A stretch of 64,000 nt of DNA from sequence record MT611523.1; one strand, written 5' to 3'. Shown piece after piece: positions 4,762 to 55,506 of this stretch; positions within the stretch are counted from its first letter, which is position 1; each line of letters starts with the position of its first letter. The DNA is from Escherichia phage DK-13. The position numbers were made by a program, and so were the translations under genes. Under the pieces are notes generated by a model that did no database searches, was not told the DNA's origin, and saw only the letters and a list, made by a program, of their open reading frames with translations.

Positions 4762-6499
4762 AAACTCCGAACAAACGAGCTTCAGACGCGGTGGACCTAA
4801 TAAAAAGCTTATCGAAGAATTAGCACCACAAAGGAGGGCGGAAGCCCTCTCTGCTGAACAGAATGATGAATTATCGAATCTGAATACAACTCTTACAAAT
4901 ACTCAGGCGGCAACCGAACTTGTATCGGAAGCTATTGAGGATAAGGGTAATCAGATTATTGAGAATATCCAGACCAACAATGGAGTCCTCCAGGATATCA
5001 GTGCTGGGGTTGAACTGACGGCCGAAGCCACCGAGAAGACTCAACAAGGGATTAAAAACCTCACGGATATTCTCTCGGATAAGCTCGACAAACTCAGTGC
5101 AATGATAAGCGGTAAAATAGGCGTCACGTCTCCTGTGGCTGGTTCTGAAAGCCTTAAACCTGTGGAGGATGCACTACCAGAGCCTGAAGAGAATAAGCCC
5201 ACAGCGAGCGTTCCAGCGCTCATACCGCCAGAAGAAAAAAAGCCCGACGCTGACTTCATTCCGGAACCAGAACAGCCAAAAAACGATGCAGAAGGTAAAG
5301 AGACTAATACCTGGTCACTTGGTGATAAGCTTGATACCCTTTCGAAGATAACCGAAAAAGGATTTAAGGCATCGATTTCTGTAGCTGACCGAATCTCCGG
5401 GATGCTGTTCAAATATACAATTACGGCAGCAGCCGAAGCAGCCAAGCTTATTGGTGGATTATTGTTGTTGGTATTCGGTATCGATGCAATACGAGTTTAC
5501 TTCCAATATTTCATGAAGCAATTCGAAAAAGGCTGGGCCGAATTTAATGATAAGTTCAAAGAATGGGGTCCGTTGCTTGAAGGACTAATGACCTGGGCTA
5601 AGAACGCCGAAGCGATGTTTAGTGAAAGGAACTGGTTAGGATTAGCCGAAGCTATTATCCGTGGGATGGTCAACTTAACGAAGAACATGGCTCAACTTCT
5701 TATGCTTGGTATTTCAAAATTAATCTCGGCTATTTTAAGTAAAATCCCTGGGATGGGTGATTTAGCAGATAATGTGGAAGCCTCAGCTTTGATGTCTTAT
5801 CAGCAAAATACAGGGGCAACTCTGGATGATGAAGACCAAACCAAGATAGCAAAATATCATGACAAACGTTCGGCCGAAGCAATGGAAGCTGCAGAGAAGA
5901 TGAATAAGAAGTATAAGGATAAACCTGAACTAATTAATCAAGCCGAAAAATATGGTAACCTTACCAAGGAACAAGCTGACCAGCTTCGCGCGGGTGGGAT
6001 TGACACAAGCTTCAGAGACCTTCCGGAAGAAGAACGTCTGGACTATTTCAAGAAGCGTGACAAAGCACAGGCTGATATTATTCGTTTGACCCAAACTGCT
6101 GACAACCTAATGAAGCCAGACGCAACCGATAAAAAGAATGCGATGGAAATGAGAGCTAACATTGAAAAACAATTAGCTGACCCAGCTATGGCAAAAGGTG
6201 GAGCTCCGAAAGACCTGAATATGCGCACCCTGTTGGAAAAACTTGATAAGTCTCTCGAGAAGTTCAAAGACGAACCGAAAGTTAAACCGCCGGATGTTAA
6301 GACTTCTCCGGATGCACAACAAGCTGCGAAGGTTGACGAAGGTATGAAGGCCAAAGAAAATAAATACAAGGATGCACCAGCTCAGGCACAAATTAACACG
6401 GTCAATAATATTCAGAAGACTTCCAGGACGCAATACAATATGCCTCCTCAAAGTTCAACCCCTGCCCCTGGCATGAGACAGGCCACGAGAATTAACTAA
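4754..6499 (+). CDS. 29: baseplate hub / tail-length protein gp29
   Basis: 581 aa, coiled-coil/low-complexity centre, overlap with gene 28 stop; synteny/size. Confidence 0.75.
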   Translation: MNKNSEQTSFRRGGPNKKLIEELAPQRRAEALSAEQNDELSNLNTTLTNTQAATELVSEAIEDKGNQIIENIQTNNGVLQDISAGVELTAEATEKTQQGIKNLTDILSDKLDKLSAMISGKIGVTSPVAGSESLKPVEDALPEPEENKPTASVPALIPPEEKKPDADFIPEPEQPKNDAEGKETNTWSLGDKLDTLSKITEKGFKASISVADRISGMLFKYTITAAAEAAKLIGGLLLLVFGIDAIRVYFQYFMKQFEKGWAEFNDKFKEWGPLLEGLMTWAKNAEAMFSERNWLGLAEAIIRGMVNLTKNMAQLLMLGISKLISAILSKIPGMGDLADNVEASALMSYQQNTGATLDDEDQTKIAKYHDKRSAEAMEAAEKMNKKYKDKPELINQAEKYGNLTKEQADQLRAGGIDTSFRDLPEEERLDYFKKRDKAQADIIRLTQTADNLMKPDATDKKNAMEMRANIEKQLADPAMAKGGAPKDLNMRTLLEKLDKSLEKFKDEPKVKPPDVKTSPDAQQAAKVDEGMKAKENKYKDAPAQAQINTVNNIQKTSRTQYNMPPQSSTPAPGMRQATRIN

Positions 6500-6507
6500 G
6501 GAATAAC

Positions 6508-7602
6508 ATGAAAGTAAAAGAACTCGATATTGATATTGCGGGTTTATTTAACGGAGGTTCTAAGACCTCCGCTGGGCAGTCAAAAGCTGCCCAGACTCAA
6601 GCTACTATTGTGGCGCAATATCCAGCAGAACGAGCTTCCGGTAATGATTCTTCAGATGATATGCGAGTTAATGACCTTTATAAAAATGGTCTGTTATTCA
6701 CGGCATACAATTTCAGTTCAAGAACATCTCCGGAATTACGCTCAGACAGGTCAAGCCAATTGACTTCATTAAAGAAAGTTTCCAATGGTGCTTCATTTAA
6801 CCCGGTTAAAAGTTTAACATCTTTTGCTAAATCGAAATTAACCGGCGCTGGCTCAACCGGTAAAAGTTTTGATTCAAACGCTGTTGCAAATATCCTGTTG
6901 CCTCGTTCGAAGTCCGATGTAGAATCCGTATCGCATCGATTCAACGATGTTGGTGAGTCTCTTATTACGAAAGGTGGTGGCTCAGCTACAGGTATTCTTA
7001 GTAACATCGCATCGACTGCAGTTTTCGGCGCACTCGAATCAGTTACAAACGGTGTAATGGCCGACCATGGCGAACAGATTTACACAACGGCACGAAGCAT
7101 GTATGCTGGTCCAGACAACAGGACAAAAGTTTATACATGGGAAATGACTCCACGTTCGGCCCAGGACTTAATCCAGATAGTGAAGATATACGAGATTTTT
7201 AACTATTACTCCTATGGAGAAACCGGTAAAAGTTCGTTTGCTTCCGAGCTGAAAGATAAAATCGATACATGGTATAAATCCACCTTCAAAAAGGAAGCAA
7301 TCGATAACTTTGACGGCAAGTTGCTCGGTGAAGAGATAACAAGCTTCCTAACGAACGTTCTGGTGGTCTCTAACCCTACTATCTGGTATATCCGCAACTT
7401 CGGTGATACAAGCTCGTACGATGGCCGTGGGGAGCTATTTGGGCCGTGCCAGATTCAGAGCATAAGATTCGATAAATCCCCGGATGGTCATTTCGGTGGA
7501 TTAGCTATTGCTCCTAACCTGCCATCGACTTTTGTACTTGAAATCACTTTCCGTGAAATCATTACGCTTAACCGTGGCTCACTATATGCGGAAGGTTTCT
7601 AA
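6508..7602 (+). CDS. 48: baseplate tail-tube junction protein gp48
   Basis: 364 aa (same as T4 gp48), synteny. Confidence 0.75.
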   Translation: MKVKELDIDIAGLFNGGSKTSAGQSKAAQTQATIVAQYPAERASGNDSSDDMRVNDLYKNGLLFTAYNFSSRTSPELRSDRSSQLTSLKKVSNGASFNPVKSLTSFAKSKLTGAGSTGKSFDSNAVANILLPRSKSDVESVSHRFNDVGESLITKGGGSATGILSNIASTAVFGALESVTNGVMADHGEQIYTTARSMYAGPDNRTKVYTWEMTPRSAQDLIQIVKIYEIFNYYSYGETGKSSFASELKDKIDTWYKSTFKKEAIDNFDGKLLGEEITSFLTNVLVVSNPTIWYIRNFGDTSSYDGRGELFGPCQIQSIRFDKSPDGHFGGLAIAPNLPSTFVLEITFREIITLNRGSLYAEGF

Positions 7603-22546: not shown

Positions 22547-22780
22547 TTAGTAGCGGTTATAACCCCGGGGACCAAAAGAGTTGGCACCCAGGCGCTCATC
22601 TTTCTTTTTGGCTCTTGCTCTAAACCCAGAATCACCTGTTTGAGCTTTCAGTTCTTTTAACAATTTGGCCTTCAGGTCAGTAATGAAACCAATCCGGCGG
22701 TCTCCCTTATAGACATAGATTCCATCATTTCTGTCACCATATGCCTTTGTAACTCTGTCATTTGTAATTAAGTTTAACAT
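22547..22780 (-). CDS. hypothetical 77-aa protein, paralog of the N-terminus of the 22030..22533 protein
   Basis: YGDRNDGIYVYKGDRRIGFITDLKAKL vs YGDRHDGIYVYKGTKKIGLMTDLRKKL; own promoter. Confidence 0.5.
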   Translation of the reverse strand: MLNLITNDRVTKAYGDRNDGIYVYKGDRRIGFITDLKAKLLKELKAQTGDSGFRARAKKKDERLGANSFGPRGYNRY

Positions 22781-22811
22781 GTTTTGGTCCTCATCAGTAG
22801 TTGATGGAACC

Positions 22812-22850
22812 ATTATGTATAGAAAGAAGGGGCTTGTACACCCCTTTTTA
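22812..22850 (-). promoter_or_regulatory. compact terminator-promoter: -35 TGTACA sits in the loop of the rnlA terminator hairpin, -10 CATAAT
   Basis: - strand AAAAAGGGGTGTACAAGCCCCTTCTTTCTATACATAATGG. Confidence 0.5.
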
Positions 22851-53543: not shown

Positions 53544-53688
53544 AATCATCTCCAGTAGTTGATAGGTTCATTATACTACAACCACTGGAGATGTATACTC
53601 TTTTATGCAAGTTTCATTAATAATAAACTAAAACAAACGCAAATTACTGGGATACACAATATCCAGATAAGACACCAGGTTTTGCTGC

Positions 53689-54030: not shown

Positions 54031-54306
54031 TTAATTTTGCATTTGTTCTTTAACTTCTTTATATGCGCCAACTGCATTCACGACCCCAGTAAAATCTGCA
54101 GTCCCACGATAGAGATAGAAAGCAATTTCAGTCAGGTGGTAGACTTCAAATTCTGAAAGATAAACGATAACGTCATAATATGCAACTTGACCCTGGACTT
54201 CGTTGAATACCACATCAAAAATTTCATGGGTTGGAAAATTGATGTTGTTGTTTTTGAGTGCTTGGATAAGAATTTGTTTGATGTTGTGAGTAGTAACGTG
54301 TTCCAT
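54031..54306 (-). CDS. hypothetical protein
   Basis: Start moved to ATG after hairpin-embedded SD (MEHVTTHNIKQ...); 91 aa. Confidence 0.5.
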   Translation of the reverse strand: MEHVTTHNIKQILIQALKNNNINFPTHEIFDVVFNEVQGQVAYYDVIVYLSEFEVYHLTEIAFYLYRGTADFTGVVNAVGAYKEVKEQMQN

Positions 54307-54312
54307 GATAAT

Positions 54313-54338
54313 GTCCTCATTTGTTGGTATGAGGACAT
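54313..54338 (-). promoter_or_regulatory. hairpin sequestering the Shine-Dalgarno of the 54031..54306 gene
   Basis: - strand TGTCCTCA-taccaacaaa-TGAGGACA then TTATCATG; SD GAGGA lies in the 3' arm. Confidence 0.45.
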
Positions 54339-54367
54339 TATTACACAGTTGGTTCAGCTTGTAAACC
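54338..54367 (-). promoter_or_regulatory. early promoter (GTTTACA) inside the 3' end of the upstream gene
   Basis: - strand GGTTTACAAGCTGAACCAACTGTGTAATAATG. Confidence 0.4.
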
Positions 54368-54947
54368 GGTGATAGGGAAATTTTTCTTCTGAACAAGAAC
54401 GGAGGTACCAGCCATCCCCTTGTGACTTCTGCACAAGACCAGACTCAGGAACGAAAGCACCAGGCCCAGCAAGGAATTTTGGTTTAAATCTATAACCTTT
54501 GAGAGTCTCTTTTACATCGAGCATAATCATAAGGTCAGCAAGTTTGTGTTGCATAAAGGGACCAAGATTAACCCCGTAACCATGTGGATAATCGCCCTGG
54601 TGACCAGTATGCACGGATATCCATTTGGAACCAGACTGGTGGGTCTTGACTTCGATTCTTACCCCTTCCTTCGAAACTACATCAAATGCAAAGGAATAAG
54701 GATTATCGTAATCTTCATCACCGCCACATAAAAAACCGGAGGTCCATTTGGCAATAGCTTGTTCAGCCATTGTGGCCACCATACATCTTTGCATGACTTG
54801 CTCACGGTCCTGACCTGGGTCTTTACGCAATGAATACCGGGCAGTGTCTACAATCTTTTGCAGGGATTCGGGGGTTAAGTCTTCCTTTGTATAAAGGAAG
54901 GAGGGCATCTTTTTCAGATGCTCCCATGTTTTACTCTTCTGAATCAT
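54354..54947 (-). CDS. PD-(D/E)xK-like nuclease candidate; possibly DenB (endonuclease IV) by position
   Basis: Start moved to ATG after AAAGGATGAGCTG; motif AFDVV...RIEVKT (D...E.K); about 197 aa near rIIB. Confidence 0.4.
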   Translation of the reverse strand: MIQKSKTWEHLKKMPSFLYTKEDLTPESLQKIVDTARYSLRKDPGQDREQVMQRCMVATMAEQAIAKWTSGFLCGGDEDYDNPYSFAFDVVSKEGVRIEVKTHQSGSKWISVHTGHQGDYPHGYGVNLGPFMQHKLADLMIMLDVKETLKGYRFKPKFLAGPGAFVPESGLVQKSQGDGWYLRSCSEEKFPYHRFTS

Positions 54948-55473: not shown

Positions 55474-55506
55474 AAAGCCTCATTAGGGGCCGAAGCCCCG
55501 ATTAAT

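Follow-up and report, generated by a model that had tools for sequence, protein, structure and literature searches.

In the hyperplastic regions of T4-like phages, a sigma-70-type promoter, a stem-loop, and a Shine-Dalgarno sequence (SD) with its ATG occur together as promoter-early stem-loop (PeSL) cassettes, which have been linked to ORFan replacement (PMC2839356, Arbiol et al. 2010; PMC4122927, Comeau et al. 2014). The T4/PST version of these cassettes has the consensus TTTACW-N17-TAYWAT (PMC4122927), and the published subclasses, for which the T4 ndd.4/.5 locus of the denB-ndd region is among the examples, include cassettes with a stem-loop overlapping the -10 box (PMC2839356; PMC4122927). 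In both of these studies the stem-loop was interpreted solely as a terminator or attenuator, and the words “translation” and “ribosome” occur in neither (PMC2839356; PMC4122927). In another described system, comprising T4 e, soc, 49, I-TevI, I-TevII, I-TevIII, and segB along with Aeh1 mobE, long read-through transcripts keep the SD and/or AUG locked in a helix, while a promoter located in the DNA of the helix 5′ strand gives rise to a short, translatable RNA (PMC3014915; PMC2988022). Every internal promoter described for this system is a late one that depends on gp55 (TATAAATA), and the genes themselves “are all late genes” (PMC2988022). Here, we describe a hairpin of Escherichia phage DK-13 (sequence record MT611523.1), found in a stretch of 64,000 nucleotides (nt) that was analyzed as a whole and is hereafter called the window. 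The hairpin lies between denB and an open reading frame (ORF) of 91 amino acids (aa), its 5′ arm overlaps an early-type promoter motif, and its 3′ arm contains the SD of the 91-aa ORF. All features are given on the minus strand unless otherwise stated.

Compared to the PeSL cassettes, the promoter motif of the window fits the consensus at 11 of 12 positions, the mismatch being the first base of the -10 box, and is associated with a stable stem-loop whose 5′ arm overlaps five of the six bases of that box. As in PeSLs, an upstream stop codon (the denB TGA) is found at the 5′ end and an SD and ATG at the 3′ end, and the surroundings are a hyperplastic region with ORFan neighbors, in which the downstream gene varies between related phages. 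The locus departs from the published cassettes in that the last part of denB, and not the sequence past its stop codon, contains the -35 box, and in that its stem is AU-rich without a U-tail, whereas RB49 stems are polyG/polyC. In addition, the stem-loops of all five published subclasses are found either at the transcription start or upstream of it, whereas the stem in the window spans the predicted start and its 3′ arm is the SD. With the T4 and Aeh1 genes, the locus shares an SD held in a helix on RNA initiated upstream and, in silico, a promoter yielding RNA without the 5′ strand. This predicted internal promoter is, however, of the early type (GTTTAC -35 element plus TGn), and the late promoter TATAAATA is absent from positions 54300-54400. 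Strictly, the element thus falls outside the T4 late family, and its predicted timing is reversed. We propose that the locus represents a composite cassette of ~62 nt, made of an early sigma-70-type promoter, a stem-loop, an SD, and an ATG, which probably, if far from assuredly, acts as a translational gate.

Structure and significance of the hairpin

A preliminary description of this DNA had reported a perfect hairpin of 8 base pairs (bp) at positions 54313-54338. The inverted repeat is indeed present, as the 8-mers TGTCCTCA (54337-54330) and TGAGGACA (54319-54312), although the coordinates were one base off and the full helix is longer than first reported, i.e., a perfect 13-bp stem with an 8-nt loop, in which five of the 13 pairs are G-C. 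Based on sequence, fold, and stem count, the 5′ arm is ATAATGTCCTCAT (54329..54341) and the 3′ arm is ATGAGGACATTAT (54308..54320). The loop given by the fold, ACCAACAA (54321..54328), would also provide the opening bases of the promoter’s own transcript. The whole SD, GAGGA (54314..54318), is enclosed in the 3′ arm, and 7 nt separate it from the ATG at 54306. In the same fold, a weak outer helix of 5 bp pairs CUGUG (54344..54348) with CAUGG (54303..54307), and the latter strand includes the start codon ATG (54306-54304).

This hairpin is the sole perfect stem of ≥10 bp (with loops of 3–12 nt) within the 64-kb window, and first-order Markov simulations yielded an expectation of 0.01 stems of ≥13 bp per window. 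Folding of the 5′ untranslated region, which the preliminary description had suggested as a check, placed the SD fully in the 3′ arm, with a 101-nt fold of -24.9 kcal/mol (z = -4.46) and none of 200 shuffled sequences as stable. Overall, the hairpin ranks approximately third in stability among 31,978 windows of 44 nt taken from both strands. When 117 gene starts were surveyed heuristically, the probability that the SD is unpaired, P(SD unpaired), was 0.00 at only two starts, namely that of the gene behind the hairpin and one other. None of the Rfam 15 families was matched at the gathering score; three chance-level hits were obtained, at 16–22 bits versus 50–117.

Early promoter motif overlapping the 5′ arm

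Directly upstream of and overlapping the 5′ arm is a T4-type early promoter motif that the preliminary description does not mention, GTTTACA-17-TGtAATAAT, which was picked up by a promoter scan as TTTACA-17-AATAAT (10 of 12 matches plus TG). T4 early promoters are UP/-35/TGn/-10 promoters (PMC2988021), with a consensus consisting of GTTTAC at -36 to -31, a GT-rich/TGn tract, and a -10 box (PMC1524935). At this locus, the -35 element is GTTTACA (54360..54366), of which the scan scored the hexamer TTTACA and in which GTTTAC equals the T4 early consensus; other genera have the same -35 element, equally spaced, at their denB loci. It is followed by the TGn extended -10 (TGT, 54343..54345) and the -10 hexamer AATAAT (54337..54342), which contributes five of its six bases (54341-54337) to the foot of the 5′ arm. 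All three elements are invariant in 12 of 12 close relatives, which are Gapriverviruses 95–100% identical over the junction, and this holds for the TGT even though the adjoining 5′ bases 54347 and 54346 vary.

Based on this spacing, transcription is predicted to start within 54328..54332, the likeliest position being A54330, which lies 7 nt past the -10 box and is the penultimate base of the 5′ arm. The sequence that follows this start, AUACCAAC, resembles AUCAAC, the predicted opening of transcripts from other early-type promoters, both of the window and of T4 (motif A(T/C)CAAC). Farther upstream, the A-rich tract AGAAGAAAAATTT (54378..54390), at ~-60 to -48 from the predicted start and inside the coding end of denB, is a possible UP element, and the 11 bases separating it from GTTTAC (CCCTATCACCG) are C-rich and likewise denB coding sequence. 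No MotA box was found at the promoter, and neither of the T4 records NC_000866 and AF158101 carries an annotated promoter feature for the denB-ndd region.

Two predicted RNA classes and a proposed gate

We evaluated how accessible the SD would be on RNAs with different 5′ ends. For RNAs starting at 54420, 54380, or 54345, P(SD unpaired) was 0.000, and opening the region from -15 to +13 would cost 17.7–19.5 kcal/mol, whereas for RNAs starting anywhere within 54332-54328 the SD was 0.72 unpaired and the opening cost was 3.4 kcal/mol. The ensemble of the read-through RNA contained no alternative fold that would free the SD. The sequestration of the SD put forward in the preliminary description is thus borne out, for RNA that carries the 5′ arm, by these energies, as well as by pairing being kept in the comparative analyses below. 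That description had also named a transcript starting downstream of the 5′ arm as a finding that would speak against regulation by the hairpin. Such a start is predicted for one of the two RNA classes, which would make the regulation conditional but would not abolish it.

In the mechanism we propose, the 5′ arm would be built from the -10 box and the next 8 bases, and the 3′ arm from the SD and the SD-to-ATG spacer. Read-through RNA from denB would carry both arms, with the SD locked in the 13-bp helix and the AUG held more weakly in the outer helix, and the 91-aa ORF would be translationally silent on this RNA. RNA from the ORF’s own promoter, starting at ~A54330, would lack the 5′ arm and have an unstructured leader with a free SD, and would thus be translated. 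The hairpin would in this way couple translation of the 91-aa ORF to its own immediate-early promoter and insulate it from upstream transcription. In terms of timing, translation would be expected from the immediate-early transcript alone, with silence on read-through or middle-mode RNA. Since the early promoter overlaps the 5′ arm, relief from occlusion is most simply viewed as transcriptional. What we infer in this mechanism is that the promoter is active and starts transcription at this site, that read-through continues past the hairpin, and that translation is affected.

The mechanism also involves the transcript of the upstream gene. The denB stop codon (TGA, 54356-54354) lies 12 nt before the 5′ arm of the hairpin and the gap between them is terminator-free, so that every denB mRNA should carry at least the 5′ arm. 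The heuristic survey of gene starts reported no promoter-like site ≤90 nt upstream of the denB start, and the promoter scan reported only a weak 9/12 site ~70 nt upstream of denB. We also considered translational coupling from denB, and rejected it based on geometry: a ribosome with the denB UGA in its A site would reach ~54348, and might open the outer helix but not the 13-bp stem. The helicase point of the ribosome lies at ~+11 from the P site.

Substitutions in close relatives

Among the 12 close relatives, the helix displays four non-apical substitutions (at 54347, 54346, 54331, and 54314), all of which are interchanges between G·U and Watson–Crick pairs on the sense RNA. Two of these are single changes that keep the pairing (54331 C>U and 54314 A>G). 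The other two occur together as UG>CA at 54347/54346 in 6 of the 12 relatives, where they turn two G·U pairs into C-G and A-U and lower P(AUG unpaired) from 0.30 to 0.001. Since G·U pairs are possible in the sense-strand RNA alone, this pattern favors a structure acting at the RNA level. At the apex of the stem, 9 of the 12 relatives have C×A in place of the closing pair U54329-A54320, i.e., a 12-bp stem is the majority state.

Recurrence of the cassette across denB loci

To compare more distant lineages, we collected 29 loci from IMG/VR anchored on DenB (36–98% DenB identity), to which we added Marfa, VAC36, fDHCT2, T4, and eight further Gapriverviruses. DenB anchoring was used in place of a 14-base scan of IMG/VR with the cassette core ACCAACAA(N)TGAGGA, which returned ≥120 matches, mostly due to chance and thus uninformative. 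A search of IMG/VR with the 91-aa ORF itself yielded just three near-identical Gapriverviruses, and was hence powerless for comparison. Because stem registers differ between lineages, fixed-column covariation would be misleading, and we dropped a column-wise covariation analysis of MAFFT alignments in favor of per-sequence accessibility with shuffle controls, along with an inspection of individual substitutions.

In most lineages, denB is followed by the cassette, whose length, measured between the -35 box and the ATG, is nearly constant at 59–67 nt. The promoters consist of TTTACA (or TGTACA) and, after 16 or 17 nt, TATAGT, TACTAT, TATTAT, or AATAAT, mostly with TG, and are followed by a hairpin with the SD in its 3′ arm. 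The arms differ by lineage yet remain complementary to each other. In the window, they are GTCCTC/GAGGAC within ATAATGTCCTCAT / ATGAGGACATTAT, while loci L131 and L136-138 have TATAGTACTCCT / AGGAGTACTATA, and L132, L141, and L142 have the shorter TAGTACTCCT / AGGAGTACTA. Similarly, the arms are AGCTCCA / TGGAGCT in L148 and TTCTCCGTTAG / CTAACGGAGAA in L146 and L147, and the pair TACTCCT/AGGAGTA occurs among the denB cassettes of other lineages. The loop is conserved as ACACCAACAA in Marfavirus and further lineages. The position of the 5′ arm is itself variable, as it may be located at the -10 box, after the -10 box, or in the -35/-10 spacer, whereas the SD is always in the 3′ arm. For instance, the SD-to-ATG spacer complements the -10 hexamer in the window and in the L131- and L132-type groups (AATAAT with ATTAT; TATAGT with ACTATA). 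In L146 and L147, as well as in a second element of the window and in T4 ndd.4 (see below), the -35/-10 spacer provides the 5′ arm and the loop contains the -10 box, with the SD still in the 3′ arm.

When RNAs were folded from the -35 box, the SD was buried (P ≤ 0.013) in 18 of 20 distinct denB cassettes, and when they were folded from the predicted start, it was largely open (0.48–0.89) in 20 of 20. As a control, the upstream sequence was shuffled 500 times: 9 of the 18 cassettes were never matched by a shuffled sequence, 8 were matched 1–25 times, and L133/4 was matched 91 times. From these comparisons, we argue that pairing between the two arms is likely to be under selection.

The genes located behind the cassette are diverse, with >10 unrelated N-termini following the homologous cassette across the 29 denB loci. 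The ORFs downstream of the cassette in the window and in Marfa are unrelated (E = 0.15). Likewise, L143 and L144 have identical 61-nt promoter-leader cassettes (~1924-1985 in L143) and unrelated ORFs (MKIKASEV... versus MKRYYLKN...). Since these two loci share the cassette but not the ORF, the recombination boundary appears to lie at or just past the start codon.

Similar elements in the window and in T4

Two further elements of the window combine a promoter-like site with a hairpin occluding an SD. The second element (53550-53597) consists of TATACA (-35), CATCTCCAGTGGTTGTAG, TATAAT (-10, in the loop), and CTATCAACTACTGGAGATG, and its stem, imperfect and 18 bp long, joins the promoter spacer to the GGAG SD of an ORF starting at 53549 or 53543. 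It is the most stable single hairpin of the window (-21 kcal/mol in 44 nt), precedes an ndd.4-like hydrophobic ORF of 38–40 aa (PHROG 3098), and has an opening cost of 18.7 kcal/mol on read-through RNA versus 2.8 on RNA from its own start. The third element (22780-22850), in front of the ORF 22547-22780, consists of TGTACA-17-CATAAT followed by GGTTCCATCA-ACTAC-TGATGAGGACC with the SD in the 3′ arm, and its opening cost is 13.7 versus 3.9 kcal/mol on the same two RNAs. A distinct GGGG/CCCC hairpin is found round the -35 box of this third element. The three SD-occluding elements of the window share no arm sequence.

Other hairpins of the window correspond to classic PeSL subclasses, being compact and located round the -10 box with the SD free. 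These are found at ~54019-53975 (start 53955), ~52970-52930 (start 52900), ~52550-52510 (ndd, start 52481), and ~63408-63365. Nearly all small ORFs between denB and ndd have their own predicted promoter, and promoter-embedded hairpins represent 4 of the approximately nine most stable local structures in the window. A P(SD unpaired) ≤ 0.11 was obtained for 3 of 18 starts near a promoter-like site versus 0 of ~99 without one, a comparison that is indicative only as the threshold was chosen post hoc. The most stable local structure of the window is a separate one, at 6553-6596 on both strands (-27.6 kcal/mol in 44 nt), where the tandem hairpins GGAGGTTCTAAGACCTCC and GGGCAGTCAAAAGCTGCCC are found near the boundary of the plus-strand ORFs 5588-6499 and 6508-7602.

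In T4, the ndd.4 locus (NC_000866; ~3751-3830 in L157, T4 ~166750-166830) displays GTTTACA, a spacer that is the 5′ arm, TACTAT, and the 3′ arm ATGGAGGAACAG, which together form a 15-bp stem. The annotated ATG of T4 ndd.4 sits within the SD-containing arm (ATG-GAG-GAA-CAG-AAA-ATG). Judging from this layout, the true start looks like the in-frame ATG five codons downstream, which has GGAGG 8 nt upstream.

Genomic setting

The window comes from a T4-like coliphage, which is classed in the genus Gaprivervirus (VR7/VR20/SP18 group), and the 1.5 kb round the hairpin is matched by 84 phage records, with TH41 as the top match (97%). The minus-strand gene order is rIIB, a denB.1-like ORF, another ORF, denB, the hairpin, the 91-aa ORF, an 88-aa ORF, small ndd.x-like ORFs, ndd, and gene 52, which places the hairpin in the denB-ndd hyperplastic region of T4-like genomes, between denB and the 91-aa ORFan. 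The upstream gene (54354..54947) encodes DNA endonuclease IV (PHROG 1360, DenB-like, E = 5.8e-80) and is annotated as denB in relatives. Farther upstream, a G+C-rich UUCG-tetraloop hairpin, GGGGCUUCGGCCCC, occupies 55486-55499, directly past the stop codon of rIIB and directly ahead of the next ORF’s SD, and the T4 rIIB junction has the counterpart GGCUUCGGCC. C(UUCG)G hairpins are classic features of T4 intercistronic regions.

The 91-aa ORFan (54031..54306), i.e., the gene proposed to be gated, is VR7 gp288-like and matches PHROG 17571 over its full length (E = 7e-61), a family whose function is unassigned. A Pfam scan of this ORF gave zero families at E ≤ 0.01, and it is annotated as “hypothetical” in relatives. 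One record (PQ341120, EAWsc9) labels it as a “MafI family immunity protein”, which we consider unsupported in light of the Pfam result and of the functionless PHROG. In phage fDHCT2 (~1326-1660 in L007), the homologue is broken by a deletion or frameshift and left unannotated, and because of this disruption we suggest that the 91-aa ORF may be dispensable. fDHCT2 retains the promoter-hairpin cassette, with one wobble and one apical mismatch.

Alternative explanations

A different role for the stem, as a terminator, attenuator, or 3′-end stabilizer of the denB transcript with an incidental SD overlap, appears unlikely to us but is to be taken seriously, as it is the role given to the stem-loop by the PeSL authors, and as one RB49 stem-loop lowered downstream lacZ about as much as rrnB T1 did (PMC2839356). 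The cassette is conserved with the denB side whatever gene comes next, and the window hairpin, like an intrinsic terminator, is a stable stem-loop starting just 12 nt past a stop codon. Unlike an intrinsic terminator, however, it has a single T in the 8 nt after the stem, G-C pairs at only 5 of 13 positions (in contrast to the polyG/polyC RB49 stems), and an SD inside the stem with the start codon abutting it. A terminator scan left this hairpin unreported, and a U-tract follows 0 of 12 SD-occluding stems, with at most 4 T in 8 nt. The elements with an arm in the promoter spacer have large loops, which are poor for termination, and yet they target the SD, while the other promoter-embedded hairpins in the window are compact and off the SD, so that an overlap with the SD does not seem to be forced. 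The sequence does not support an intrinsic terminator, and a role as attenuator or 3′-end stabilizer may still apply. A palindrome arising by chance and without function is barely credible: the genome is AT-rich (40% GC), as are both the -10 box and the SD-ATG spacer, but only 0.01 such stems are expected per window, the fold has a z of -4.46, and the arrangement recurs across genera with complementary arms.

The preliminary description instead predicted a translational repression that RegB-type cleavage, a refolding of the RNA, or a trans-acting factor would relieve, which amounts to constitutive repression of a single transcript. In its favor, every RNA carrying the 5′ arm has its SD fully paired, this SD belongs to a gene in the early region of a T4-like phage, and SD regions of T4 early mRNAs are RegB targets (PMC3014915). 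Nevertheless, the SD GAGGAC includes no GGAG or GGAU in or near it (GAGGACAUUAUC), its context AUGAGGACAUUAUC does not match the A-rich GG*AGRAYARAA, and RegB requires an unpaired GGA and is readily blocked by secondary structure, which would protect an SD that is fully paired in read-through RNA (PMC3014915). Moreover, RegB cleavage inactivates mRNAs and does not activate them (PMC3014915). As for refolding, the ensemble is without an SD-freeing fold and no riboswitch or curated RNA family was matched, and for all of these routes the internal promoter is a simpler path to an open SD, which leaves this explanation very improbable. A DNA-level element, be it a recombination hotspot (PeSL mini-circle model), an operator for a dimeric protein, or a promoter-modulating cruciform, would be compatible with a translational gate, and we consider it improbable without dismissing it. 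The cassette is kept while the downstream gene is swapped, as reflected by the unrelated N-termini, which supports a recombination junction, and PeSL crossovers were located both inside the stem-loop and in the interval from the -10 box to the SD (PMC2839356). On the other hand, all four non-apical substitutions use G·U pairs, workable in the sense RNA only, a common operator is unlikely because the three elements of this genome share no arm sequence, and homologous recombination requires sequence similarity, not a hairpin. An 8-nt loop disfavors cruciform extrusion.

Several points weigh against the translational gate itself. The whole case is computational: structure, significance, the promoter-like motif and its conservation, the contrast between folds, and the pairing kept across lineages were computed, and the start site and expression are predictions. 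The simple promoter scan found 8 sites, versus 6.8 ± 2.7 in shuffled sequence, which leaves conservation and the T4-specific consensus as the grounds for the promoter call, and the -10 box has an A instead of a T at -12. The stem is no more conserved than the flanking coding sequence (variable sites 3/26 versus 11 and 20 of 137), a test of little power since the relatives are 95–100% identical. L143-L145 and the T4 denB junction keep the promoter with a free SD, and L139 and L140 are occluded in a short context only, i.e., the design is common but not universal. The cassette is so short that any stem placed downstream of the -10 box will tend to extend as far as the SD, and the overlap could thus partly be a by-product of packing. 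Finally, occlusion of the SD would be redundant if the stem stopped or destabilized the read-through RNA. As a separate matter, we set aside an RNase III site, because the substrates of this enzyme are typically longer than a 13-bp stem.

Implications for T4-like phages

Both the mechanism and the cassette family considered here are already known; the new aspect would be an early instead of a late internal promoter, a modest addition that alters no major concept. In practical terms, the geometry of the cassette can be used to place start codons and promoters in hyperplastic regions, and the ~62-nt unit may serve in engineering as a portable, self-insulating expression module. If the proposed gate is correct, its “early-only” logic would mirror the “late-only” gate of T4 e (lysozyme), soc, and I-TevI, and would be found at the denB junction across genera as well as at T4 ndd.4. 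More speculatively, and with doubts that still outweigh our confidence, there may be a subclass of PeSL-type cassettes in which the stem-loop is mainly a translational insulator. By pairing the SD of the cassette with its -10 box or promoter spacer, it would restrict translation of each ORFan to RNA from a private immediate-early promoter and silence it on all read-through RNA. The promoter-hairpin-SD unit would then be a self-contained, context-independent module, insertable anywhere in a T4-like hyperplastic region. This would provide a functional reason for stem-loops to travel with promoters in mobile, ORFan-shuffling cassettes, as an acquired gene would be expressed alike wherever it is inserted.

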